From an uncultured virus (IMG/VR IMGVR_UViG_3300023240_000015) (lineage: Duplodnaviria; Heunggongvirae; Uroviricota; Caudoviricetes), in IMG/VR virus record IMGVR_UViG_3300023240_000015: DNA of 64,000 bases; one strand, written 5' to 3'. The position numbers and the translations under genes were made by a program. Below are positions 5,240 through 64,000 of the stretch, piece after piece. The notes beneath the pieces were generated by a model, which made no database searches, was not told the origin of the DNA, and was given only the letters and a program-made list of their open reading frames with translations. Numbering within the stretch: position 1 is the first letter of the stretch; each line of letters opens with the position of its first letter.

Positions 5240-5259
5240 AAAGCATAAGTAATTTATAT

Positions 5260-17704: not shown

Positions 17705-19465
17705 ATGGAAAATGCTTTTCAACTTATAGTCGAACAACCTAATTACGATGTAAAATATCTCATCGAAGAAAAAAATCGAAATACGCCTTCGACAATGCAT
17801 ATTCAAGGACCATTTTTAATGGCTGATTTGGCTAATAGAAATAATAGAATTTATCCATTGGAAGAGATGGTAAAAGAAGTTGATAGATATAATACGGAAA
17901 TGATTAAAAATAATCGAGCTACTGGTGAGCTTGAACATCCGAACTGTCATCTTGAAACAGCTAAAATTCTGACGGGAGATGGTTGGAAATTTTTGAAAGA
18001 TATTGATAATGAAGAGATGGTTTATTCTCTAAATCCAGATACACGCGAAATTGAATTACATCAGATCGATAAAAAGATAGATGACGCATATACTGGTAAA
18101 TTATACCATATTAAAGGTAGAAATATTGATACAAAGGTAACTCCAAATCATAGATTTTTAGTTTATGATCGATATAATAAACCATCTTTCGTCACAGCCG
18201 AGGAATTATATAATAATCGAAATAAATATAACCACTCGACTATACCAAAGCAAGGAAATTGGGTTTCTGAAACCCCCGAATTATTTAAATTAGAAGGGTT
18301 AAAAAATATTAAGGACGTTGGTAGATATAATATAAATCCAGAAACCGATTCTTATATTAAATATGAAACATTTGTTAAATTTTTAGGAATTTGGTTATCT
18401 GAGGGGTGGACTGTAAAATCGGAAAAAACGATTGTGGGAATAACTCAAAAGAAATCAGACATTGTTATAAAAATAAGAGAGATGCTTTCGGAATTTCCAG
18501 ATGAAATGAAATGGTCTGAAACTATCACCGATAGCGGCACATCAATTTTTAAATTGTTAGATTATCGATTAGCCGAATATCTTAAAAATAATTTTGGCAC
18601 AACATGTTATAATAAAAAAATCGCAAAAGAATTTAAAAATTTAGATTCTACATTATTGGACGAATTGGTATATTGGTTTAATTTAGGAGATGGTCGATTT
18701 GGAAATTGTGATGGATACGATTTTCGAAATGTGTTTTCAACATCAGAACAGCTTATATTAGATTTGAATGAAATTTTATTCAAATCGGGCGGTTGTGGAA
18801 ATATTAGAGAGATTGAAGCAGAATCGGATTATTACTTTGCGGGTCGTTTGATAAAGGCAGAAAATAAATCTATATTGTATCAATTAAATATATCAAGCAC
18901 TAATAATATCCATTTAGATTCTCGATTTTTAAAAATAACACCAGTGGATGATTTTTCAGGGAGAGTTTATTGTGTCACAGTAAAACATGGAAATTTTTAT
19001 TGCATGGATAACGGAAAGTCCTTTTGGACTGGAAATTCAGCAACGGTTAACCTAGAACGGGTTTGCCATGTTGTTACCGAACTTAAACAAGATGGTAATA
19101 TATTTTTAGGAAAATCTAAGATTCTTTCTACTCCTATGGGTAATATTGTTAAGTCACTTATTATGGATGGTGTTAAGTTGGGTGTATCTTCTAGAGCACT
19201 TGGACGGCTCGACGAAAAGGGTGGTAAATCAATGGTTTCGGAAATCCATCTGGTTGCCGTTGATGTTGTGGCTGACCCCTCGGTTCCAACTGCCTTTGTT
19301 AATGGTATCTTAGAATCTAAGAAATGGCTTGTTGGTGAATCCGGTTTATTCGAACCAGTTTATGCTGATTTTGAAAAGAGTATTTCCAAACTTCCCAAGA
19401 AGGCTCAACAAGAATTCCTTAAAGAACAAGTCATTAATTTCATTAATGCAATCAAGAAACTCTAA
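17705..19465 (+). CDS. gp21: Prohead protease with intein
   Basis: NRNNRIYP, GELEHP, ILSTPMG, LGVSSRALG, DVVADPS. Confidence 0.93.
   Translation: MENAFQLIVEQPNYDVKYLIEEKNRNTPSTMHIQGPFLMADLANRNNRIYPLEEMVKEVDRYNTEMIKNNRATGELEHPNCHLETAKILTGDGWKFLKDIDNEEMVYSLNPDTREIELHQIDKKIDDAYTGKLYHIKGRNIDTKVTPNHRFLVYDRYNKPSFVTAEELYNNRNKYNHSTIPKQGNWVSETPELFKLEGLKNIKDVGRYNINPETDSYIKYETFVKFLGIWLSEGWTVKSEKTIVGITQKKSDIVIKIREMLSEFPDEMKWSETITDSGTSIFKLLDYRLAEYLKNNFGTTCYNKKIAKEFKNLDSTLLDELVYWFNLGDGRFGNCDGYDFRNVFSTSEQLILDLNEILFKSGGCGNIREIEAESDYYFAGRLIKAENKSILYQLNISSTNNIHLDSRFLKITPVDDFSGRVYCVTVKHGNFYCMDNGKSFWTGNSATVNLERVCHVVTELKQDGNIFLGKSKILSTPMGNIVKSLIMDGVKLGVSSRALGRLDEKGGKSMVSEIHLVAVDVVADPSVPTAFVNGILESKKWLVGESGLFEPVYADFEKSISKLPKKAQQEFLKEQVINFINAIKKL
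17945..19036 (+). mobile_element. Intein (364 aa) with LAGLIDADG homing endonuclease
   Basis: Starts CHLETAKILT, has block B TPNHRF, FLGIWLSEG and LGDG, ends VYCVTV...FWTGN before Ser +1. Confidence 0.9.
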
Positions 19466-53105: not shown

Positions 53106-53143
53106 GTTAATTACTTATAAATGTTTTGATCATTTACCAATTA

Positions 53144-54334
53144 TTAACGAATCGTTCCGTATAAACTTTGTGTAATATTCTCCAAATTCATGGAAGGTGA
53201 AGAATTATTGGATATTATTATACCGTATAAACTTTGTGTAATATTCTTCAAATTCATGGAAGGTGAAGAATTATTGGATATTATTATACCGTCTGAACTT
53301 TGTGTAATATTCTTCAAATTCATGGAAGGTGAAGAATTATTGGATATTATTATACCGTCTGAACTTTGAAATATTGACCCTAAACTATTCTCGGTTTGTG
53401 AATTAGAACTTCTGAAAGTACCGTTACCACTATAAATAATTTGTTTGATATTCGATGAAGTACTTGAATTAGAACTTCTGAAAGTACCGTTACCACTATA
53501 AATAATTTGTTTGATATTCGATGAAATACTTGAATTGTTATGGTAGGAGAATCCATTATCAGATTTTATTATATCGCTAATATCATAATTTAAATCTATA
53601 ATATGTAAAATTGAATCTCCGCATGAATCATCAAGGATCTCTGCGTTGGGGTTATAATTTTCTCTATATGGGTTTGTGCAACCCGCGATTGGTGGTCTAT
53701 AACATTCTATAATTTTTCCATCTAAAGACTCATAATATATCTTAATATATGATTGTGTATCACTTTGTGGATAAAGTTCTAAAAAATTACCAATAGGACA
53801 TCCGTCATATAAATAATTGAATGGGTCATTTTCAGAATAAACTCTAATCCATGTAACGTTTTCGTGACACTTTCCTAGACCCCAACCCCCATTTTCATCA
53901 GGTCGTATATCACATACTAAAGATAATTGTAAAATATTGTTATTAGGTGAAGATTCTCTAATTTGTCTAGCTAATTCACTATTAATGGTTAATGATGTGT
54001 CTCTATCACCGCCACCAGGATCATTATTAAGGTCTGCCACACCTATTAAAACACCATTTCCTAATAATCTAAATCTAGCAGCGTTACATGAATGTCCACC
54101 TTGACAAGGCCCAGAGTTGTTAGAATATCTTACCTCTATTGTATAACCATCATAAAAAGACGTAGATTCTCCCGGTGATTCGAGAAGTCCTACTAATGCA
54201 CACGAAAACGATTCTCGGGGGATCGGTTGGACTATATCAACATAACCAACGGAACAATCTGATATTTTCGATAATATAGGAAAATTCCCAGAGAATGATC
54301 TATTTCCTTTAGAAAATTGCTTGAGATAATCCAT
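53144..54334 (-). CDS. Cys-containing protein with tandem-repeat C-terminus
   Basis: CQGGHSCNAARF, GCTNP...NYNPNA...DDSC. Confidence 0.7.
   Translation of the reverse strand: MDYLKQFSKGNRSFSGNFPILSKISDCSVGYVDIVQPIPRESFSCALVGLLESPGESTSFYDGYTIEVRYSNNSGPCQGGHSCNAARFRLLGNGVLIGVADLNNDPGGGDRDTSLTINSELARQIRESSPNNNILQLSLVCDIRPDENGGWGLGKCHENVTWIRVYSENDPFNYLYDGCPIGNFLELYPQSDTQSYIKIYYESLDGKIIECYRPPIAGCTNPYRENYNPNAEILDDSCGDSILHIIDLNYDISDIIKSDNGFSYHNNSSISSNIKQIIYSGNGTFRSSNSSTSSNIKQIIYSGNGTFRSSNSQTENSLGSIFQSSDGIIISNNSSPSMNLKNITQSSDGIIISNNSSPSMNLKNITQSLYGIIISNNSSPSMNLENITQSLYGTIR
53158..53537. repeat. 66-bp (22-aa) tandem repeats, two repeat types
   Basis: GIIISNNSSPSMNL(K/E)NITQS x3 and SNIKQIIYSGNGTFRSSNS x2, all with a 66-bp period. 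Confidence 0.9.
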
Positions 54335-55063: not shown

Positions 55064-55330
55064 GTGGAAATGAAGAAAAATATCGAAGAACAGAAAGAAA
55101 TGGCTCTCAACTCTTTTAAATGGATCAAAGAACGAATTTCTGAATCAAATACCAATTTGGAATTATTGCGCGAAAAATCTTCTGTAAATCAAGACTCCGA
55201 TTTAATGGAAGTAGATGAGGATATAGACCAAGAAATTGAAGAAGCAATGATCATATATAAAGAATTGGCCGATAGACTTGGTTTCGAAAAGAGAAACCTG
55301 AAAGTTTTGGGTGTTATTACTGGTATCTAG
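55064..55330 (+). CDS. Hypothetical coiled-coil protein
   Basis: ORF downstream of a sigma70-like promoter. Confidence 0.6.
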   Translation: MEMKKNIEEQKEMALNSFKWIKERISESNTNLELLREKSSVNQDSDLMEVDEDIDQEIEEAMIIYKELADRLGFEKRNLKVLGVITGI

Positions 55331-55625
55331 AATCCCATTCGTTCTTCAGAGTTTCGGTAATTTCCGAAACCGTACGAAATTCTGCAATAGATTGAAGTTC
55401 AATCTTTTCCAAAAACCTTATATTGTTGAAATCTAGTTCGAGAACAAACACCCAGTCGGATCGATCTTCGTAGATACGCTCTTCGAATCGACAATCGACA
55501 ACATCAGCAATATTCAAACCACCTTTACCAAAAATTGTTACGGCTTGGTTTCTGAGAACGGTCAAATTTTCTAGGTTTAGAGGATCTGTGAAATTTGTGA
55601 CATTGTAGACAATTTCTATTTGCAT
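55317..55625 (-). CDS. Hypothetical protein
   Basis: ORF with TAAATA upstream. Confidence 0.6.
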   Translation of the reverse strand: MQIEIVYNVTNFTDPLNLENLTVLRNQAVTIFGKGGLNIADVVDCRFEERIYEDRSDWVFVLELDFNNIRFLEKIELQSIAEFRTVSEITETLKNEWDSRYQ

Positions 55626-55684
55626 ATATTATATTTAATATGATTTTTGTTGAATATCAAGAAAAATATGATAAATTATAGAAT

Positions 55685-55831
55685 ATGTCTGATAATAGAA
55701 AACATTCCGCTGGAAAGGGTGATTATCCTAGAAAAGTCAACCAAACCAAATATGGTAAGAATCATGATGAAATTTCATGGCCAAGTAAAAAGAAGGTTGA
55801 CAAATCAATAAAAACGAAATATGATCGGTGA
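55685..55831 (+). CDS. 48-aa basic phage protein (not in ORF track)
   Basis: MSDNRKHSAGKGDYPRKVNQTKYGKNHDEISW... Confidence 0.6.
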   Translation: MSDNRKHSAGKGDYPRKVNQTKYGKNHDEISWPSKKKVDKSIKTKYDR

Positions 55832-56504
55832 TATGTTTAATAAATTTACATTTAACCACAACAAAGACGTAAAAACATTCTTTGTGTCTGACACCCATTT
55901 TTGCCATGATCGAGATTTTATTTTAGGAAAACGAGGATTCTCCAACATATCTGAGCACGATATTGCGATAAAAAATCGATGGAATGATATCGTATCACCA
56001 CAAGATAACGTGATACATTTGGGGGATTTTTTGGTTGGGGCCGGAAATGATGCCTTTAAAAGAGGACAGGAAATTCTATTTTCTCTGAACGGACACATCC
56101 ATTTTTTATGGGGAAATCATAATAGTTATGTCAAAGAAATATATCGAATCTCCCTGAAAGAAAAAATTGGTGAATGTGATCTTACTACCGAAATGTATCC
56201 CATTACCTATCAAGACAAGATAACGTTTTATGGTAATAATCTTCTGGCTAAAATTAAAACCGAAAAAAACTCCCAATATATATTTTGTTCGCATTTTGCT
56301 CATCGCATATGGATAGATTCTCACAAAGGTTCTGTGTGGCATCTCAGTGGACACAGCCACGGTGTCGATGTCGAAAGTCAACCAGAATATCTCAACTCTT
56401 CTCGGTTAGATGTAGGTATCGAAAATTTTGGCGGTCCTGTGTCATTTGATGATATCAAAGTAATAATGGACAAAAAAATGGATAAAAAAATAGATCATCA
56501 TTGA
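55821..56504 (+). CDS. Calcineurin-like metallophosphoesterase
   Basis: SDTHF, HLGDF, GNH, HLSGHSH, LDVG. Confidence 0.9.
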   Translation: MIGDMFNKFTFNHNKDVKTFFVSDTHFCHDRDFILGKRGFSNISEHDIAIKNRWNDIVSPQDNVIHLGDFLVGAGNDAFKRGQEILFSLNGHIHFLWGNHNSYVKEIYRISLKEKIGECDLTTEMYPITYQDKITFYGNNLLAKIKTEKNSQYIFCSHFAHRIWIDSHKGSVWHLSGHSHGVDVESQPEYLNSSRLDVGIENFGGPVSFDDIKVIMDKKMDKKIDHH

Positions 56505-56514
56505 TTATTAATAA

Positions 56515-56787
56515 ATGAAATTTATTATCTCGATTTTATGTGCATTTATCGTTATGGGATGTTCGACTCCTAAATCGACATCTCGATTTTATGGTGATAC
56601 TGATTACCAACAGAAATCATCGAAGACTCTTTATACTAGGATGGGAACCGAATATCGCCTACAAATATATGAATTTAAATCTAAAAAAAATTCGGTGTTT
56701 GTGGGAGGATCGGTCGAAACAGGTTATGATATCTATCAACGTATGATGAAAATGAACGGAACGGTTAATGTTGGAATGGAATTTTAA
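56515..56787 (+). CDS. Small lipoprotein
   Basis: Lipoprotein signal ending VMGC. Confidence 0.65.
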   Translation: MKFIISILCAFIVMGCSTPKSTSRFYGDTDYQQKSSKTLYTRMGTEYRLQIYEFKSKKNSVFVGGSVETGYDIYQRMMKMNGTVNVGMEF

Positions 56788-56788
56788 A

Positions 56789-56989
56789 ATGAAAACTATA
56801 AATAAATTATTAAACTTTTTTGGATATGCATTGATACCATATTCCGAAATTGAATCAATGTATCGAGATGGTGAAATTTATGGGAATATCCATCCAGCAG
56901 AAAACGAAAGACTTTCTGGATATTTTAACGGTCTGGGAGATTATGCTTCTAAGAAATCTATGATATTAGATGAAAAATATTATCAATAA
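56789..56989 (+). CDS. Hypothetical protein
   Basis: ATG at 56789 right after the previous stop. Confidence 0.6.
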   Translation: MKTINKLLNFFGYALIPYSEIESMYRDGEIYGNIHPAENERLSGYFNGLGDYASKKSMILDEKYYQ

Positions 56990-56991
56990 CC

Positions 56992-57380
56992 TTGACATAT
57001 TTTTAAAATTATGAATAATTCAAACATGAAAAACCGCGAAACCTTATGGGTAATTTATCTGGAGAAAAACCCGAAGTTCATTCAACCAGATGCCCAAATT
57101 ACCTTTACCCAAAAGGGTTTGAGACAGTTCTTCTAACGAACATTCGACTATGCCTATAAAGCTGGTGTTGAATCTGCAATTGAAGACCCATCACCCCAAT
57201 CATCTAAAAAGGATTATGATGATCTTTCGGGTGATAATTTTTTTAATCATTTGTTCAAACGATATAAAAAATAAATTGACATTTATCAAAAGATCTGAAA
57301 AACTTCAAACATGTTCACACTTCCACACAAATATCAACACCAATAAAATAAGTTGACATAACCTATAAAATCTGATAATT
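56992..57380 (+). promoter_or_regulatory. Cluster of sigma70-like early/middle promoters
   Basis: TTGACA at ~56992, ~57276 and ~57353, each followed by a TG-extended -10-like hexamer. Confidence 0.6.
57026..57274 (+). pseudogene. Small gene with an in-frame TAA at codon 37
   Basis: MKNRETLW...GLRQFF*RTFDYAYKAGVES...RYKK*; own TTGACA promoter. Confidence 0.6.
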
Positions 57381-57387
57381 TATCAAA

Positions 57388-57819
57388 ATGAAAACAATTA
57401 GAACCAGCACATTCGAAACAAATAGTTCATCGAGCCATTCTCTCACAATTGGGACGAATATCGAAATGCCAAAGATAGATTATAATGGAGAACCTTTTGT
57501 AATCGAAAGTGGTGAATATGGTTGGGGATATAAAAGTTTTACCGATATTTATAGCAAAATTTGTTACGTTGCTGTTGATGCAATGGAAACCGGAAACGAA
57601 AATCTTAAAAATTGGTTAGTCGAGATTCTTAAAGATGCATATCATTGTGGTGATGTAGTATTCGACTTCACCGTTGGTTGCGAATCTAATAAAAACTATA
57701 CCTACATCGACCACCAATCGGTGGGAACCGCTCTCGAAGCATTTCAGAGCAAATCCGATCTAGAAAGATTTTTGTTTTCACCTACTAGCGAACTAATTAT
57801 TAATAACGATAATCACTAA
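57388..57819 (+). CDS. Conserved phage protein (FETNSSSSHS family)
   Basis: IRTSTFETNSSSSHS...YIDHQS. Confidence 0.8.
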   Translation: MKTIRTSTFETNSSSSHSLTIGTNIEMPKIDYNGEPFVIESGEYGWGYKSFTDIYSKICYVAVDAMETGNENLKNWLVEILKDAYHCGDVVFDFTVGCESNKNYTYIDHQSVGTALEAFQSKSDLERFLFSPTSELIINNDNH

Positions 57820-57905
57820 AACCAAACCATCCTAGAATAAGGTAATCTAGGATGATGATAAAGAAATTATTGACGACGATACGACACAATGATAAGTAAT
57901 CGTTA

Positions 57906-58229
57906 ATGAACACAGATGATCTAGGAACAATTTACGAGTCCTCCGTTTTTAACGAGGGACTCGTTTCTAATGTTGGTAAGATCCTTAAAACCGGATTGGA
58001 ACAGGGGTCTAACATTTTTGATATTGTTTCTAATAATCTTCAAGAGTTTATTTCGGTAATTGCTGTTGTGTCGGCAATGACCACGGCAATGAAATTTCAA
58101 ACGATGTATCAAAACCGACCGGATATTTTGAAAAGTCATATTCATTATGTTGAAGCAGCTAAAGATGAAGTGGCTCAATTTTTGGTAGATCATCCAGATA
58201 TTGTTCAGATGTTGATTAAAAAGAGTTGA
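57906..58229 (+). CDS. Hypothetical protein
   Basis: TAAGTA at 57893. Confidence 0.65.
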   Translation: MNTDDLGTIYESSVFNEGLVSNVGKILKTGLEQGSNIFDIVSNNLQEFISVIAVVSAMTTAMKFQTMYQNRPDILKSHIHYVEAAKDEVAQFLVDHPDIVQMLIKKS

Positions 58230-58274
58230 AAAATGATACACTCAAGTATAAGTAAATAGAGAAGGACATATAAG

Positions 58275-58364
58275 ATGAAGTTAAGATCAAACACAACAAT
58301 GCATAAACCGCAACCGATTATAGGTCGTTTAGGTTATTGTGTCGCTGAATGGCTCTTTATGTAA
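58275..58364 (+). CDS. 29-aa leader peptide of a putative tRNA-operon attenuator
   Basis: GAAGGA SD at 58261; MKLRSNTTMHKPQPIIGRLGYCVAEWLFM*; 19 of 20 amino acids. Confidence 0.75.
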   Translation: MKLRSNTTMHKPQPIIGRLGYCVAEWLFM

Positions 58365-58366
58365 CA

Positions 58367-58405
58367 TCCCTGATTATAATCTAATAGTAGACGAATAATC
58401 GGGGA
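58367..58405 (+). promoter_or_regulatory. Antiterminator hairpin
   Basis: TCCCTGATTAT (58367-77) pairs with ATAATCGGGGA (58395-405) and overlaps the terminator 5' arm. Confidence 0.7.
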
Positions 58406-58430
58406 ACCCAAAAGGTTCCCTTTTTTGTTT
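58402..58430 (+). terminator. Intrinsic terminator (attenuator)
   Basis: GGGAACC-caaaa-GGTTCCC-TTTTTTGTTT. Confidence 0.85.
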
Positions 58431-58552
58431 TAGGAACCAAAAACTGAAAACAAAAAGAAAAAGTAAAAAAAATTTGACAATCTCTTAAAAATATGAGACA
58501 GTAAAGGGGTTGAAAGAAAAACAACAAAAACAATTTTTAGAACATTTTGAGA

Positions 58553-58780
58553 AGACTTAGTTAGCCTAGTTCACTTCTAGTGGCGGTAAGAACGGCGAAA
58601 AAACAATAATAAAGAAAATCGGACCTTGTGCCTCGAAAGCATATTGAAAAATGGTTTCCGATTCGTTCCAATAGGAATAGCCCCCAATTGACAGGAGATC
58701 TAAAAGATCTTGTGTGGTAATAATCTATGGGTAGAAGCATCAACTTCTACTATAGAATAACCATCGTTCTAAATGTCTTG
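58553..58780 (+). ncRNA. Putative multi-stem structured RNA
   Basis: Closing AAGAC/GTCTT and AGAACG/CGTTCT pairings plus several internal hairpins; no convincing ORF. Confidence 0.45.
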
Positions 58781-58828
58781 AAAAACTGATGAACATTAAG
58801 ATGGTTATTATATTAGCAGACTATGTAA

Positions 58829-59413
58829 ATGTCTGCACATTTTATGAAAAATCCATATCCAATTCACTATACTAGGGATGAGTATAGAAACGAATATCTA
58901 GTATCTCCCGATTGGAAGAAGAAGAGGCTTATTGTATTGGAAAGGGATGAAGTATGTCGAATTTGTGATGTGACCGTTTCACATGATGTTCACCACATAA
59001 CATATGACCGTATTCCGTTCGAGAATTTGGAGACCGATTTAATCGGAATCTGTCGCCCTTGTCATAATAAGATTCATAGCTGGCATCTCTTAACTAAGTG
59101 CCGTAGCGTGAAAAAGATACGTTCACTTATTTCAATGATGAAGACTAAATTCGAGATAGATGATTTATTCATCTCAAAAATGAATGGTTTACCGATAAAT
59201 TCGAAGAAAAAGATGTCGAGTCTCTTTAAGAAGAATGTGCATTCCTTCGAATCTCTTCGTGGGGTTATGGTAACATTTAGAACTTACTTGGACATAAGAG
59301 ACCTAATCAAAACAGCCCGTAAGAAGTTTAAATCAAAGAAGTTGGGGTTTAAGATCAATAAACCACAAAATTCTTTCTTAGGTCATGGTGGATGGAGTAG
59401 AAAAATTCTATAA
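58829..59413 (+). CDS. HNH endonuclease-like protein
   Basis: WKKKR..VLERD..CRIC...VHHITY...ICRPCHNKIH. Confidence 0.85.
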   Translation: MSAHFMKNPYPIHYTRDEYRNEYLVSPDWKKKRLIVLERDEVCRICDVTVSHDVHHITYDRIPFENLETDLIGICRPCHNKIHSWHLLTKCRSVKKIRSLISMMKTKFEIDDLFISKMNGLPINSKKKMSSLFKKNVHSFESLRGVMVTFRTYLDIRDLIKTARKKFKSKKLGFKINKPQNSFLGHGGWSRKIL

Positions 59414-59420
59414 TTAAAAT

Positions 59421-59493
59421 ATCCCTGCCAGCGGATTCTGGACAGATGCCTTCTAAGCAACTAGGGAAGGTTCGACTCCTTCTAGGGATACCA
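59421..59493 (+). tRNA. tRNA-Arg(TCT), atypical D arm
   Basis: ATCCCTG/TAGGGAT stem, loop CT-TCT-AA, GGTTCGACTCC, CCA. Confidence 0.7.
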
Positions 59494-59548
59494 AATGTTA
59501 AATATCGTTTCGGCCCGATGATCTGGTAAACCAGAAGCCGACATTTTT

Positions 59549-59585
59549 GCCGTGGTCGCATAGTGGCCGATTGCACCTGTTTTTT
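59549..59585 (+). pseudogene. Orphan tRNA 5' half (Thr-like)
   Basis: GCCGTGG-TC-GCATAGTGGCCGATTGC-A-CCTGT, with no adjacent 3' half. Confidence 0.55.
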
Positions 59586-59784
59586 TACCTACAGAGTTCG
59601 TCGATTAGTATGTAGGTGGCTGGAATAAACATCGACTCTGACGGAGAATCTGATAGGTCAGAAATAGGTCTGACAATCCGTTGAAGCAACAACAAAAATC
59701 GCGATCAAAATGTTGCTAGGACTTGTAAATTTGAAACTTGCGAACGGCTCGCGTAATCTGGTAAACCAGAAGCCGACTTTTTAC

Positions 59785-59858
59785 GCTTCCTTAGTTCACG
59801 CTGGCTAGAATTCCTCACTTGTAATGAGGGGAAGTCGGTTCGACACCGACAGGAAGCT
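59785..59858 (+). tRNA. tRNA-Thr(TGT)
   Basis: Canonical cloverleaf; CCTCA-CTTGTAA-TGAGG. Confidence 0.9.
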
Positions 59859-60565
59859 CATGATCGATTGCGTTTGCCACTCTTGTTAAGTCTCCTAAAG
59901 TTTGGAGTCAAACTATGACAATTTGGACAAATTAGTTCAAGGTTATCCTCAGAACAATTCAAAGCATCACCGTCAATATGGTTGACCTCCAAAGGAATAG
60001 ATTTGCTAGTTGGGTTAATTTGACTCCAACCACATTTACAACATTTGTTTTCATATTTATCAAAAAGATATCTTCTTACGAATACTTTAATTCGGATAGT
60101 CTTTCCCGTCCACCCATTGATGGACCCATCTTTCCAATTACTAATCAACTCTTGTTGTTTATATTTTCTTGTGCAAATCTGCGAACAAAATTTTCTTGGA
60201 TTTTCCCTCTCGATGAAAGAAAATGAGTCTTTGCAATTCTCACAATTTTTTGTTTTAGTGTTAGTAATTTTTCTTAAATGGTTGTTGAAAGTTGCCGAAC
60301 AAGACCTTGAACAGAAATTATTATCACCAATTTGGCTATTTTGGATAATCCGACTTTCTCCGCAATTTTTACAAATAATAGACTTGGTGAGAGTCTTCGC
60401 TCGTCGTGAACACTCTACGGAACAAAAATCGACCCTTTTTGTCCCTTTCAATCCCCTTCGTGCTAGTGATATACTAACGAAAAAAGGTTTCTTACAATTT
60501 AAGCATTCGCATGGAACTTTTGAGCCGCGAACAACATCTGAAATATTTGGTACGAGCATCTTCAT
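59858..60565 (-). CDS. HNH homing endonuclease with Cys-rich repeats, antisense to the tRNA array
   Basis: FCS..C repeats, LEVNHIDG...NLELICPNCH; start reassigned to the ATG at 60565 after GTAAGTA. Confidence 0.85.
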   Translation of the reverse strand: MKMLVPNISDVVRGSKVPCECLNCKKPFFVSISLARRGLKGTKRVDFCSVECSRRAKTLTKSIICKNCGESRIIQNSQIGDNNFCSRSCSATFNNHLRKITNTKTKNCENCKDSFSFIERENPRKFCSQICTRKYKQQELISNWKDGSINGWTGKTIRIKVFVRRYLFDKYENKCCKCGWSQINPTSKSIPLEVNHIDGDALNCSEDNLELICPNCHSLTPNFRRLNKSGKRNRS

Positions 60566-60608
60566 ACTAATACTTACCCCGATTCCCCGTCTTGGCTCCA
60601 TACAATTT

Positions 60609-60687
60609 GTCGCGGGAGTGAAACGGAATAATAATCCAAGTCTCATAAGCTTTGGGATAACAGGTTCGACTCCTGTCTGCGCCACCA
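60609..60687 (+). tRNA. tRNA-Met(CAT)
   Basis: Loop CT-CAT-AA, GGTTCGACTCC, CCA; one acceptor mismatch. Confidence 0.75.
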
Positions 60688-60713
60688 TTGATAATGATCG
60701 TTTACATTTATAT

Positions 60714-60809
60714 ATGGATAAGGCTAAGGTAGCCGGAAGGACTCCAAATCCTTTGTGTCAAATCGGAAGAAATGACTACGATAAGATTCGATTTCTTATA
60801 TCCATGCCA
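60714..60809 (+). tRNA. tRNA-Trp(CCA) with enlarged variable region
   Basis: ATGGATA/TATCCAT, AAGGA-CTCCAAA-TCCTT, G73, CCA. Confidence 0.75.
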
Positions 60810-60826
60810 TTTCAAAAACTTTATAT

Positions 60827-60913
60827 GTGGTTGCGCAGAAGTCGGAGAGTCTGACCTGCCTTTCAAGCAGTGTCCCTTATGGGAAGCGGGTTCGATTCCC
60901 GTCAGCCATGCCA
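60827..60913 (+). tRNA. tRNA-Glu(TTC) with long variable arm
   Basis: CTGC-CTTTCAA-GCAG, TCCC-ttat-GGGA arm, GGTTCGATTCC, CCA. Confidence 0.7.
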
Positions 60914-60996
60914 TTTCGATACTTTGCCTTAACAATGTGTAGTTATTAGTTTCTAGAAACTATCCGTATGTGTGCATACGGGTTGAATGTTTTTAT

Positions 60997-61073
60997 GGTG
61001 GTATTAGTGTAGTGGTTTCGCACTTCTCTTTGTGAAAGAGACAGGATGATTTCGAATATCATATACCACACCA
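60997..61073 (+). tRNA. tRNA-His(GTG)
   Basis: G-1 encoded, TCTCT-TTGTGAA-AGAGA, A73, CCA. Confidence 0.8.
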
Positions 61074-61076
61074 TTT

Positions 61077-61320
61077 TTCATTAATCTTATCTTGGATAAT
61101 TTGGAAATATTTTAATGACGACAATTCAGTGAATTTCATCTGTTCGGTAGTGTTTATAACACACAATTCTATACCATCCTCGAAACATTTTTTGATTTTC
61201 GCGTATCATTTCTTTGAATATTTAACAATTTAGATTCCCCGTAGATGGGAGAGTAATGAAATATACCATTGATCTCAAAAGCCAAGTCTAATTTTTGGAT
61301 GTAGATATCTAACTCTATCG
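61077..61320 (-). pseudogene. Remnant PD-(D/E)xK (Vsr/DUF559-like) endonuclease
   Basis: IELDIYIQKLDLAFEINGIFHYSPIYG, then a frameshift to CFEDGIELCVIN; no N-terminus. Confidence 0.7.
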
Positions 61321-61341
61321 CTTAGAAAATTTTAGTATTAT

Positions 61342-61412
61342 TCCCTGTAGGTGTATCGGTTGCACATCTGGTTTTGGCCCAGACAGGCGTGGTTCGATTC
61401 CACGACGGGGAG
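61342..61412 (+). tRNA. tRNA-Gln(TTG)
   Basis: TCTGG-TTTTGGC-CCAGA, GGTTCGATTCC. Confidence 0.85.
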
Positions 61413-61426
61413 CATTTTAGATTTTT

Positions 61427-61511
61427 GGGTGATTAAACTGTTAAGGAGGCAGTCGGGATTGTAAACCCCGCTCGTAATGATCGCAGGATTCGATTTCCTG
61501 ATCACCCACCA
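61427..61511 (+). tRNA. tRNA-Tyr(GTA)
   Basis: GGGTGAT/ATCACCC, loop TT-GTA-AA, long variable arm, CCA. Confidence 0.85.
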
Positions 61512-61515
61512 TTTC

Positions 61516-61594
61516 GCGTTGGTATCCGCTTCGGCTTCGAACCGATTGAAACGGTAAAGGACGCATGGGATTTCGAAATTCCCCCGACGCACCA
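61516..61594 (+). tRNA. tRNA-Arg(TCG)-like RNA lacking a conventional D arm
   Basis: GCGTTGG/CCGACGC, TCGG-CTTCGAA-CCGA, T arm, ACCA. Confidence 0.6.
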
Positions 61595-61700
61595 TTTGAA
61601 TAATTTATCTAAACGATAAAGCCTGCACGTTTGAAGGTTCATGCGACCAATGATTACTACCATGTAGAGTCTCGCGAAACTGATCGGATGTATTTTCAAC

Positions 61701-61771
61701 CTCTGTATAATTAAATGGTATAATAAGCCTTTGATAAAGGCTCTTCGTTGGTTCGATTCCAGCTATAGAGA
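61701..61771 (+). tRNA. tRNA-Ile(GAT)
   Basis: AGCCT-TTGATAA-AGGCT, GGTTCGATTCC. Confidence 0.85.
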
Positions 61772-61784
61772 CATAATTTTCTAA

Positions 61785-61862
61785 CCTCCGTTAGCTCACG
61801 ATTGGCAGAGCAAGCTCTTTATAAGAGCGAGGTAGCTGGATCGACGCCAGCACGGAGGACCA
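61785..61862 (+). tRNA. tRNA-Ile(TAT)
   Basis: CCTCCGT/ACGGAGG, GCTC-TTTATAA-GAGC, CCA. Confidence 0.85.
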
Positions 61863-62071
61863 AACATTTTTTGGTGCGTAGGCGAACACAACTCTTCGCC
61901 CACCAAAACATTTTTAACGAGACGGTGCTGCAAGGTTCGATCAGATCATGATCTGTGAAAGACCCCAAGGAACGCACAATTAAAAAGTCTAATATAGTTT
62001 CACGACCTCATGAGGAAGTGTTACGACAATAAACACAGAAGGTTCGAATCCCACTGGATGCACCAATTTAT

Positions 62072-62148
62072 TGCGGTCAGGTGGTCTGGTTGACCATTCA
62101 AGTTTCATAAGCTTGAGAGCTAGGTTCGATTCCTAGGACTCGCTACCA
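62072..62148 (+). tRNA. tRNA-Met(CAT), 1:72 mismatch
   Basis: CAAGT-TTCATAA-GCTTG, GGTTCGATTCC, ACCA. Confidence 0.75.
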
Positions 62149-62174
62149 TTTGTTGAGTAGTCGTAGAAGTAAAA

Positions 62175-62399
62175 ATGATATGGAAGCATGGTGAAACGTT
62201 AAATAACTACACGAGGTTTTTCGAAGAAAAAAACACCGCCTTGCGATATTTTTGCGAGAAAAGAGGCTACAAAGCGTTGATCTTAAATGTGTCTGATAAT
62301 CCAGAATTTAACAAATTTTATAGAAAATATTTGAAACATTTTAATCGCAGGGTAGAGAAGGTGGTAACTCGGGGGTCTCATTCAGTAATCATGATGTGA
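62175..62399 (+). CDS. Small hypothetical ORF or gene remnant; its 3' end runs into a tRNA
   Basis: Coding-like AT-rich spacer. Confidence 0.35.
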   Translation: MIWKHGETLNNYTRFFEEKNTALRYFCEKRGYKALILNVSDNPEFNKFYRKYLKHFNRRVEKVVTRGSHSVIMM

Positions 62400-62447
62400 T
62401 TACTGAATAAGCCCTTTCATCGGATTCGAACGCCGCCCCCGCTACCA
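62346..62447 (+). tRNA. Initiator-like tRNA(CAT) with a 27-nt hairpin insertion in the anticodon loop
   Basis: C1:T72 mismatch, GGG-rich anticodon stem, CTCAT[insert]AA, ACCA. Confidence 0.65.
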
Positions 62448-62534
62448 TTTTTGCTACTATTTAAATTTTAATTTCAGAATAGCTACAAAACGATTCTGTT
62501 GACATCTAGGAAAGACTAGTGCCAATTTAAAAAT

Positions 62535-62609
62535 GGGAGATTAAGTTATGCGGTAAACTTCGGATTTCATAAGTCCAGATAACGGATTCAGACGCCGTAT
62601 CTCCTACCA
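62535..62609 (+). tRNA. tRNA(CAT), Met or lysidine-Ile2 type
   Basis: GGGAGAT/ATCTCCT, GGAT-TTCATAA-GTCC, CCA. Confidence 0.7.
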
Positions 62610-62619
62610 TACATTTTAA

Positions 62620-62699
62620 CGGAAATGGGACTGCTTGGCGTGGTCGCGTGATTTGGGATCACGATATTCAGCGGGATTCGATGGCCCGATTTCCGACCA
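62620..62699 (+). tRNA. tRNA-Pro(TGG)
   Basis: CGGAAAT/ATTTCCG, CGTGA-TTTGGGA-TCACG, CCA. Confidence 0.85.
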
Positions 62700-62917
62700 T
62701 ATGACTTTGGGATTAGTTCGATTCCACCTGTAAAGAACGTTCGTGAAATCCTTTTTGTTTCGTAAACTTTCTGCGCGGTATATGATAGTTGACTAAGTGC
62801 AACAACCCCGCACCTTTTCTGAGTTATGCAGTTGCGATAAAACGCTAAATAGATTGCAAACTCTATGGTGGAAGCTATGGTGAAAGCTGGCAACTTGCTT
62901 TGAAATGTTGTATTTAT

Positions 62918-63002
62918 GCGAGCGTGGCGAAATCGGCAGACGCGCCAGATTTAGGATCTGGTTCCGCAAGGAGTGTGGGTTCAAGTCCCTCCGTTCGCAC
63001 CA
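62918..63002 (+). tRNA. tRNA-Leu(TAG)
   Basis: Canonical class II; CCAGA-TTTAGGA-TCTGG. Confidence 0.93.
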
Positions 63003-63219
63003 AGTCTGGATGGGAATTGGAAACAAGACGGACTTCATAAATGTCTACCTCACCGAATCGTTATTATTTGTGATAATCAAATGACGCAACCCTGTTTGCG
63101 AAAGAGGATAAACCTTAAACAGTTCAATTTATCATACTCCCCGCGCCTCTAAATGTATGCGTAATTCGGGGAGTCTTTTGAGAAATTTGATCACAGAGTT
63201 GTCTCTTAACCATTTATAT

Positions 63220-63299
63220 GTCTCGCTCGCCTAAATAGCTTAATGGCGTTTCCCTTCCAAGGAAAAATAATGAGGGCTGCTAATCCTCGCGGGATACCA
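63220..63299 (+). tRNA. tRNA-Gly(TCC), divergent T loop
   Basis: TTTCC-CTTCCAA-GGAAA, CCA. Confidence 0.7.
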
Positions 63300-63389
63300 A
63301 TTTTGACTGATAGAGTCCTCCCCATCTAAGGGATTTGCCGGAAGGTGGTGGCGATTCAAAGAAAACTGGTTCAGTCGATAATTTAAAAA

Positions 63390-63467
63390 CGCTAAGTGGT
63401 GTAGTTGGAACTCGCACGACATTCTGAAAAAATGAGGGAATCTGTTCGAATCAGATCTTAGCGGCCA
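63390..63467 (+). tRNA. tRNA-Phe(GAA)
   Basis: CGCTAAG/CTTAGCG, CATT-CTGAAAA-AATG, GTTCGAATC. Confidence 0.8.
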
Positions 63468-63503
63468 TTATTCCGCTCGAATTAGAGCATGGAAAAATTT
63501 TAT

Positions 63504-63577
63504 GGGGCATAGCTGTGGTCAGCGGAGAATTCTTGCAAAATTCTTGTCTATGATTTCGATTATCATATGCTCCACCA
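63504..63577 (+). tRNA. tRNA-Ala(TGC), minimal D loop
   Basis: G3:U70, GAATT-CTTGCAA-AATTC, CCA. Confidence 0.8.
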
Positions 63578-63582
63578 TTTAA

Positions 63583-63657
63583 GCGGGTGTCGTATAACGG
63601 CTATTATGGGGCATTGCCTATGCCCAGATGGGAGATCGTCCCTCCCCACCCGCTCCA
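63583..63657 (+). tRNA. tRNA-Gly(GCC)
   Basis: GCGGGTG/CACCCGC, GGGCA-TTGCCTA-TGCCC, U73, CCA. Confidence 0.85.
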
Positions 63658-63662
63658 ATTTT

Positions 63663-63796
63663 AAACATGAGGCGGAAATGTAAATGACGCAGCATTATCG
63701 AAAGAACTCTGGAACATCTACTAGTGATGCGAAATCCATTATTCTTAGAGATGAATCCTCCAAATGCAGGAGTGGGTCCAAATCCCACCATGTTTA
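63663..63796 (+). ncRNA. tRNA-like RNA with a 66-nt expanded anticodon domain
   Basis: AAACATG/CATGTTT, GCG/CGC D stem, GCATT/AATGC, GTGGG-TCCAAAT-CCCAC. Confidence 0.55.
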
Positions 63797-63806
63797 AAGA
63801 ATTTTA

Positions 63807-63882
63807 GTCCTCTGAGGGAGCAGGTGAACCCCAACCTCTGCAAAAGGTTTGTTGCTCGGTTCGATACCGAGAGATGACTCCA
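63807..63882 (+). tRNA. tRNA-Cys(GCA)
   Basis: AACCT-CTGCAAA-AGGTT, GGTTCGATACC, U73, CCA. Confidence 0.85.
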
Positions 63883-63924
63883 CTTTTTAATTGACAATAT
63901 CTGAAATTTTGATATCTTCACCCT

Positions 63925-64000
63925 ATGAAGAAAATTATTGCAAACTTGGTGAGTTTTATATTTGAAATGATCGACCTTATATTTTGGTGTCTGTTTTTGT
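63925..64000 (+). CDS. Partial hydrophobic ORF running off the window
   Basis: ATG downstream of a TTGACA promoter at 63891. Confidence 0.5.
   Translation, partial: MKKIIANLVSFIFEMIDLIFWCLFL

Follow-up and report, generated by a model that had tools for sequence, protein, structure and literature searches.

The leader region and its competing folds

The 64,000-nucleotide (nt) stretch of DNA analysed here (the window; IMG/VR record IMGVR_UViG_3300023240_000015) belongs to an uncultured T4-like myovirus. Its proteins include members of the Gp23 capsid and Gp20 portal families, and the capsid protein shares only ~35% identity with its counterparts in cultured cyanophages. The window carries 12 tRNA genes, and a longer 96.7-kb contig of the same phage carries 22 across ~10 kb. 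Ahead of this array, at 58247-58426, lies the element that is our subject: a short open reading frame (ORF) with upstream signals, a hairpin beginning just past its stop codon, and an intrinsic terminator that overlaps that hairpin. We tentatively read it, with somewhat less than even confidence, as a ribosome-dependent transcription attenuator heading the phage's tRNA region. Its parts are as follows.

58226..58231, + strand: TTGAAA, a possible -35-like hexamer 17 nt 5' of TAAGTA, by inference only
58247..58254, + strand: TATAAGTA, a promoter-like motif with the core ATAAGTA, recognized by its association with gene starts
58261..58266, + strand: GAAGGA, a Shine-Dalgarno (SD)-like site 8 nt before the ATG, with an anti-SD pairing energy of -5.4 kcal/mol
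58275..58364, + strand: the 29-codon leader ORF, translated as MKLRSNTTMHKPQPIIGRLGYCVAEWLFM, with its TAA stop codon at 58362-58364
58367..58377, + strand: 5' arm, TCCCTGATTAT, of the competing (antiterminator-like) stem; the hairpin is worth -15.3 kcal/mol and is present in the minimum free energy (MFE) fold
58395..58405, + strand: 3' arm of the competing stem, ATAATCGGGGA, assigned by pairing and overlapping the terminator 5' arm at 58401/2-58405
58401..58426, + strand: intrinsic terminator, an 8-pair hairpin followed by T6, found in a strict scan and the top match of a second terminator scan

An initial annotation of this DNA, made from the sequence alone, had named the motif, the SD-like site, the ORF, the stem beside its stop codon and the terminator, and all of these were borne out. 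The competing stem has 11 pairs, including one G-U, and begins 2 nt past the stop codon. The terminator, GGGAACC-caaaa-GGTTCCC-T6 at 58402-58426, has 8 pairs when 58401/58421 is counted. It is the sole strong + strand terminator that the strict scan found in the window, and the next one in the 96.7-kb contig lies >50 kb further downstream. That the only strong + strand terminator for tens of kilobases precedes the tRNA region speaks for an attenuator.

The criteria for the structure of a terminator/antiterminator pair were taken from passages of PMC5314783. Taken alone, the competing hairpin is the more stable of the two (-15.3 vs -12.3 kcal/mol). Computed with RNA ending at the terminator 3' arm, the predicted pair probability of the terminator was 0.46-0.80, varying with the length of upstream RNA included. 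We compared this with G002 which, like G003, is a relative with a complete genome and a capsid identity of about 79-80%. All 18 strong terminators of G002, whose stems are longer, scored 0.94-0.99. Shuffling the mononucleotides upstream seldom matched the low probability observed in the window (3/400, 2/300 and 5/200 shuffles). A loose definition gives 61 terminator-like hairpins for the window. Among them that at 58401 alone has an overlapping upstream stem of at least 8 pairs, and it additionally has an ATG-started ORF finishing beside this stem. When the first 8-15 nt after the stop codon were masked, as they would be under a terminating ribosome, the terminator was the only predicted fold.

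The motif TATAAGTA is associated with gene starts. All five of its sites in the window sit 6-20 nt 5' of an ATG, and four of these ATGs open ORFs of 190-1507 amino acids. In the window, 11 of the 16 sites of the core ATAAGTA precede a long ORF's start, as against 19% of sites, on a looser count, for composition-matched control motifs; in G002 the figure for ATAAGTA is 21 of 29. Late promoters of the T4 type have the consensus box TATAAATA, and by its sequence ATAAGTA/TATAAGTA fits a variant of that box. A literature search for TATAAGTA as a late promoter returned unrelated matches only. The motif mostly stands 3-12 nt from the ATG, a spacing that points to mRNA leaders that are very short or missing. 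SD sites are scarce, anti-SD pairing of -4 kcal/mol or lower being found at 3 of 51 window genes, and this is consistent with such leaders. Together, ATAAGTA and the near-absence of SD sites suggest a late-promoter variant that would make leaderless or near-leaderless mRNAs in this phage clade. Examples of ATAAGTA 3-21 nt before gene starts are at 5245, 12489, 15680, 19895, 31732 and 57892 (+ strand) and at 53118, 52280, 26137 and 7831 (- strand).

A same-layout element in related phages

The initial annotation had suggested a scan for ORFs of maximal amino-acid diversity, followed by a terminator, upstream of the tRNA arrays of related phages. An element of the same layout does occur there, in 7 distinct sequences, but it shows no detectable homology to that of the window and its leaders are not unusually diverse. 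At the array head of G003, a promoter-like box and a 22-codon ORF are followed by arm A, AGCGGGTTT, which the stop codon overlaps; then come arm B, AAACCCGCT, and arm C, AGCGGGTTT, with a U-rich tail. The whole element lies ~95 nt before the first tRNA.

Fifteen loci were anchored on the tRNA-Thr common to G002 and G003. Five of them passed an automated test for terminator, competing stem and ATG-started leader; a sixth has the element with a weaker T tail, and three have a plain promoter. A conserved downstream motif, used as a second anchor, led to 8 loci, the source of the 7 distinct sequences. In the 5 scanned loci the element is 172-236 nt from tRNA-Thr. Its ORF has 22-24 codons, with a stop codon that overlaps arm A by 1-2 nt in 7/7 on our reading of the alignment, and insertions and deletions within the ORF are of 3 and 6 nt only. 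Ahead of the ATAAATA/ATAATTA box these leaders have TTGCAA, at the same spacing as TTGAAA in the window.

Covariation of the two stems, which the initial annotation had put forward as a test, could be followed in this element and was seen in one of them. Pairing in the terminator reaches 94.7%, double-sided changes occur at 4 pairs and 6 cells, and its covariation score was reached by none of 500 shuffles. The A:B stem is 83.6% paired, compared with at most 46.7% when slid, but displays no covariation. The alternative hairpins are close in energy in 6/7 sequences, and in one member (L155) the two stems overlap by 4 nt only, as in the window.

The leaders themselves contain one Cys in 7/7 and one Trp in 6/7. 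Among the four most diverged leaders, 16 of 93 residues are Thr (binomial p 2.7e-4, uncorrected for relatedness). Distinct residues number 13-15 in 22-24 codons, vs 12.9-13.5 expected. A sub-threshold match of the Rfam family Trp_leader to the G003 element scored 22.3 bits (E 0.42), where the gathering score is 41, and we do not count it as evidence.

The G003-type element and that of the window have in common their layout, their energy balance, a single Cys and a single Trp, and a Thr-headed array downstream. Both have a promoter-like motif before the ATG (ATAAATA/ATAATTA in the G003 type) and a U-rich tail. The G003-type ORF has 22-24 codons and a stop codon overlapping arm A; that of the window has 29, with 2 nt between stop codon and stem. 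The two elements differ in several respects. Arms A and C form a direct repeat in the G003 type, not in the window. In the G003 type a conserved 85-nt structured motif and the tRNAs follow within ~100 nt, whereas in the window the tRNAs are 1.36 kb away. The relatives' element raises the prior that the window element is functional, without proving it. It is also the stronger lead of the two; comparative support exists for it and not for the element of the window.

The conserved structured RNA motif, ~85 nt long (GGAGGTGARCCTGAATCAC...CCACCGTGAA...), lies between the terminator and a tRNA-Gly in loci L153 (680-770), L155, L156, L157, L158 and L160; one of its hairpins contains 3 pairs with compensatory changes, and it has no Rfam family match. 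In G003, a partial match to transfer-messenger RNA (tmRNA) at L158:1301-1428 (- strand; 46 bits, cut by the end of the locus) lies ~370 nt upstream of the leader element; its sequence points to a phage-encoded tmRNA beside the tRNA array. A run of small genes at G002:51000-56400 has a strong terminator 17-29 nt after each gene. The stems of these terminators are nearly alike (AACCCAnnGC...GCnGTGGGTT), and by sequence this suggests a repeated terminator cassette.

Attenuation and its alternatives

Three features downstream of the terminator bear on what the element might control.

58440..58479, + strand: a tract rich in A (20 of the 25 nt upstream) and then TTGACA (58474-58479), promoter-like on sequence reading, 3' of the terminator
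58829..59413, + strand: an HNH homing-endonuclease-like gene in the terminator-to-tRNA interval (PHROG HNH families, best E 1.3e-10)
59785..59859, + strand: tRNA-Thr(UGU), which opens the tRNA array, found by tRNA scan

As an attenuator, the element would work as follows. Transcription would begin at TATAAGTA, probably also arriving from the upstream gene, and would cross the 29-codon ORF. A ribosome at the stop codon (58362-64) would cover the next 12-15 nt and with them the competing stem's 5' arm (58367-77). With this arm covered, the terminator hairpin (58401-21) would form and transcription would end at T6. If the ribosome were lagging, stalled or absent, the 11-bp stem would form first, capturing the terminator stem at its base, and a larger share of polymerases would go on to transcribe the HNH gene and the 22 tRNAs. 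This reading is built on the sequence parts, their energies, the link between motif and gene starts and the analogous element conserved among relatives. What it presumes is that the ORF is translated, that termination and read-through take place, and how large the effect would be.

Two classes of attenuator invite comparison. In the leaders of amino-acid operons (trpL, hisL, thrL, leuL, pheL and ilvL), a promoter-proximal ORF of 14-32 codons precedes a hairpin that competes with a terminator, and the position of the ribosome decides the fold. The window element fits this class in the length of its ORF and in the spacing from stop codon to stem. It differs from that class in having no run of a regulatory codon, no predicted anti-antiterminator (1:2) hairpin and only 4-5 shared terminator-arm bases, in matching no Rfam leader model and in residing in a phage. 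Downstream of it are a homing endonuclease and tRNAs, where the trp/his leaders have biosynthetic enzymes. For the mutual exclusion of the 2:3 and 3:4 hairpins in the trp/his type, its counterpart is an 11-bp stem that covers 4-5 of 8 arm bases, with the two states 1.3 kcal/mol apart.

The second class comprises ribosome-mediated attenuators that sense translation inhibition: bmrB-bmrCD, the vmlR leader, the msrD leader and the toiL upstream ORF (PMC4191407, PMC9226507, PMC10314930, PMC12121999). They have a short leader ORF without amino-acid specificity, in which stalling anywhere shifts the fold or exposes the transcript. In its logic, this type comes closest to a general translation sensor. 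These systems respond to antibiotics and control bacterial resistance or toxin-antitoxin genes, whereas the putative output of the window element is phage tRNAs.

Could the switch act on tRNAs that lie so far away? The first tRNA (Thr-UGU, 59785) is 1364 nt from the terminator stem, and the interval holds ~400 nt of non-coding sequence besides the HNH gene. In T4, according to passages of PMC2330249 (citing Broida and Abelson), the precursor transcript of the tRNAs includes segB, a homing-endonuclease gene. Both phages are T4-like and both have a tRNA cluster with a homing-endonuclease gene; since T4 co-transcribes the two, the HNH gene between switch and tRNAs is no bar, and the distance is not decisive by itself. 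The passages of PMC2330249 mention no leader ORF or attenuator at the T4 cluster, whereas the window has a candidate one.

Several observations weigh against an attenuator, and the first concern the switch itself. The initial annotation had the competing stem sequester the 5' arm of the terminator. The overlap is real, but it takes only 4-5 of that arm's 7-8 bases. At the decision point, a shortened upstream hairpin together with the full terminator (-17.4 kcal/mol) is 1.3 kcal/mol below the full competing hairpin (-16.1), and the barrier between the two states is 3.2 kcal/mol. The competing stem is therefore no lock: where the terminator stem has its base, it can do no more than shift an equilibrium. 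With two folds so close in energy, a modest regulatory effect is the most to be expected. No 1:2 hairpin is predicted. With the terminator removed, the arm at 58367-77 pairs upstream weakly (total 0.33-0.60 at 58367-71, with no single pair above ~0.3). Hence, unlike trp, an untranslated element should lean to read-through. GAAGGA is unusual here yet is weak evidence for translation, because SD sites are rare in this phage. The leader has no run of one regulatory codon either, its sole repeat being ACA-ACA (Thr-Thr) at codons 7-8.

The comparative evidence sets limits too. G002 has a plain TTGACA-N17-TAAGTT promoter ~35 nt before its tRNA-Thr and no leader. An nhmmer search with the whole of the relatives' element and another with the motif gave 0 matches in the window and in G007, a record of the same phage (control, G003: E 1e-60), and their 85-nt motif is absent from the window even when 3 mismatches are allowed. 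The best alignment score between the window's leader peptide and those of the relatives was reached by 66 of 2000 shuffles. In a survey of tRNA block heads in 9 sequences, the triad of leader ORF, competing stem and terminator was found within 600 nt of 1 of 38, the Thr head of G003. Random 600-nt windows contained a loose triad in 2 of 600, a chance rate of about one per 180 kb of strand, or roughly one in a genome as large as this. The triad in the window is far stronger than the threshold of that survey.

Finally, the window element is confined to near-identical copies of one phage population, and its own stems offer no variation in which to look for covariation. Copies L001, L002 and L100 are identical, and L099 represents a single second haplotype with 4 differences in 6321 nt. 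Three of these fall within 28 nt inside the ORF (58294, 58309 and 58321); all are at second codon positions and all change the amino acid (T7I, P12Q and I16T). The frame remains open, and the start, stop, stems and terminator are untouched, a pattern that counts in favour of an attenuator. The ACA-ACA repeat is lost. The two haplotypes have MFE folds that diverge in their 5' part, which is uninformative about conservation of structure. A contig of run X20, with 58294 C>T and 3 differences in total, is consistent with the L099-type haplotype. None of the 24 sequencing runs that contain the stretch is listed as RNA, and contigs from 4 runs show the second haplotype only. By sequence, the pattern of single-nucleotide polymorphisms (SNPs) fits a peptide whose sequence is not conserved, although a single event is possible.

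A mutational hot spot, selection or a short tract of recombination might account for the clustering of these SNPs. Escape from CRISPR was discarded as a candidate, the 26-mer of neither haplotype having a match in the genome collection.

Searches beyond this population were made at several levels. Near and distant DNA searches with 57380-59500 against cultured phages returned nothing, and the 143-amino-acid neighbouring protein had no match in a protein search against cultured phages. Against viral and metagenome contigs and a protein collection, the neighbouring proteins matched identical or 99% identical copies only. DNA and protein searches of G002 and G003 yielded no homologue of any small gene in 55064-59413. 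Exact-match patterns built on the terminator, on the stem and on the tRNA-Thr of the window occurred only in this phage or in unrelated coding sequence. The nearest record, G001, does not span the locus. An Rfam search of 56000-64000 with E up to 1 gave no leader family match, and an Rfam Histone3 match (E 0.033, below threshold) was taken as chance.

Perhaps, then, the locus is simply the ordinary end of a transcription unit? It would hold a small late gene, or a ~165-nt small non-coding RNA with an incidental ORF, having its own promoter motif and terminator. The terminator would insulate the tRNA region, which would be transcribed from 58474, and the upstream hairpin would be a 3'-end stability element or a chance structure. 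The surroundings lend themselves to this account. The accessory and tRNA regions of G002 hold many small genes closely followed by terminators, among them a 40-codon ORF with a terminator 26 nt past its end and a tRNA 33 nt beyond that terminator. The 58401-58426 terminator also serves the gene just upstream (57906-58229), which has an ATAAGTA motif of its own. The terminator fold is slightly favoured and easily reached, and the chance frequency of loose triads is in keeping with an ordinary end. Past the terminator come the A-rich tract and TTGACA, and the promoter of a tRNA cluster lies just upstream of it both in T4, where passages of PMC2330249 describe a middle promoter, and in G002-type relatives.

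The site at 58474 is the most A-rich of the window's TTGACA sites, but its -10 region is poor (GACAGT, 17 nt spacing). The 370 nt preceding tRNA-Thr contain no clear promoter, and the array may be fed both from 58474 and by read-through. An ordinary end also leaves the competing stem to be explained, which is unusual against shuffles and against the 18/18 terminators of G002, as well as the conserved element of attenuator layout at the same genomic position in relatives. Of its two variants, a conserved microprotein is argued against by the three ORF SNPs, all of which change the amino acid, and a small RNA by the search for antisense targets, which found none of >12 nt within 97 kb of this phage. 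We regard an ordinary end, the main rival reading, as somewhat doubtful. Of the claim in the initial annotation that an attenuator stands upstream of the tRNA array, what stands is the layout, the link between motif and gene starts, the rarity of the stem against shuffles and the same-layout element in relatives. What tells against it is the 1364 nt to the first tRNA, with an HNH gene and a promoter-like site between.

The initial annotation had gone further and proposed a special case of the attenuator reading, in which the leader samples nearly all amino acids. Stalling anywhere, whether through starvation or host anticodon nucleases, would open the switch and supply replacement tRNAs on demand. 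The leader ORF, which matches no Pfam or PHROG family, does have 19 distinct amino acids in 29 codons, with Asp alone missing, and the variant haplotype also keeps 19. At least 19 distinct residues in 29 had a probability of 0.0015 in a simulation of independent, identically distributed residues and of 0.0008 in real 29-residue windows of the phage's own proteins. Among the window's short ORFs of 25-35 amino acids, 2/281 reached 19; all of these figures overstate significance, because the trait was noticed after the peptide had been read. By geometry, a stall well upstream of the stop codon would free the competing stem, and attenuators responsive to stalling in general are known at antibiotic-resistance genes (bmrCD, PMC4191407; vmlR, PMC9226507; the toiL upstream ORF, PMC12121999).

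The analogous leaders in relatives, however, are ordinary in diversity and Thr-rich instead. In known attenuators, single codons give little stalling signal. The codons of the leader also fit the phage's tRNAs no better than those of ordinary genes do. With the 20 anticodons in the 96.7-kb contig and standard wobble, 18/29 leader codons are readable; 29-codon windows of genes of the same phage have a mean of 19.5, and 75% of them reach at least 18. The Lys, Arg, Pro and Trp codons of the leader, and GAA, have no matching phage tRNA in the contig. The partial cover of the terminator arm, the barrier of ~3 kcal/mol, the promoter-like site past the terminator and the 1.36 kb to the first tRNA, with the HNH gene between, weaken the proposal further. 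A pan-amino-acid sensor is not supported, and we consider it very improbable.

An attenuator of the kind we favour, whatever its leader senses, would have wider implications. Why and when large phages express their tRNA genes is debated, with codon supply and escape from tRNA-cleaving defences among the explanations. A translation-sensing switch before the tRNA array would put tRNA supply under feedback control, and it would be a short, portable element. In its broadest form, the idea is that large phages gate their tRNA arrays with leader attenuators that read ribosome speed, the leader here being widened to nearly all amino acids and the relatives' element being a second, Thr-rich form. We think this generalization improbable. 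If it were true, the phage would raise its tRNA output when decoding slows, be it through host codon mismatch, starvation or host tRNA-cleaving defences. The literature listings and abstract openings that we searched contained no account of leader-peptide control of phage tRNA genes.

Other features of the array and the window

Besides the HNH homing-endonuclease-like gene at the array head (58829-59413, + strand), a second such gene lies inside the array at 59858-60688 (- strand); segB of T4 may be compared. Weak tRNA-like Rfam matches at 60609-60684 and 60829-60907 overlap the area of this second gene. In G007, ARAGORN called a tRNA within the array at a position equivalent to ~65990-66062 of the window, with an abnormal two-base anticodon loop, '(ag)'. 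The non-coding sequence before the first HNH gene (58540-58830, + strand) folds slightly better than shuffles (z -2.31; 4/200 shuffles equal); it has no Rfam family match and is not conserved among relatives.

Farther from the array, two near-identical copies of ~60 nt lie at 53431 and 53497 (+ coordinates), 66 nt apart, and form a tandem repeat within a gene of unknown function encoding 396 amino acids (53144-54334, - strand). The prohead protease gene (17705-19465, + strand; Peptidase_S77) has an intein splicing domain match over residues 97-432 and probably contains an intein.

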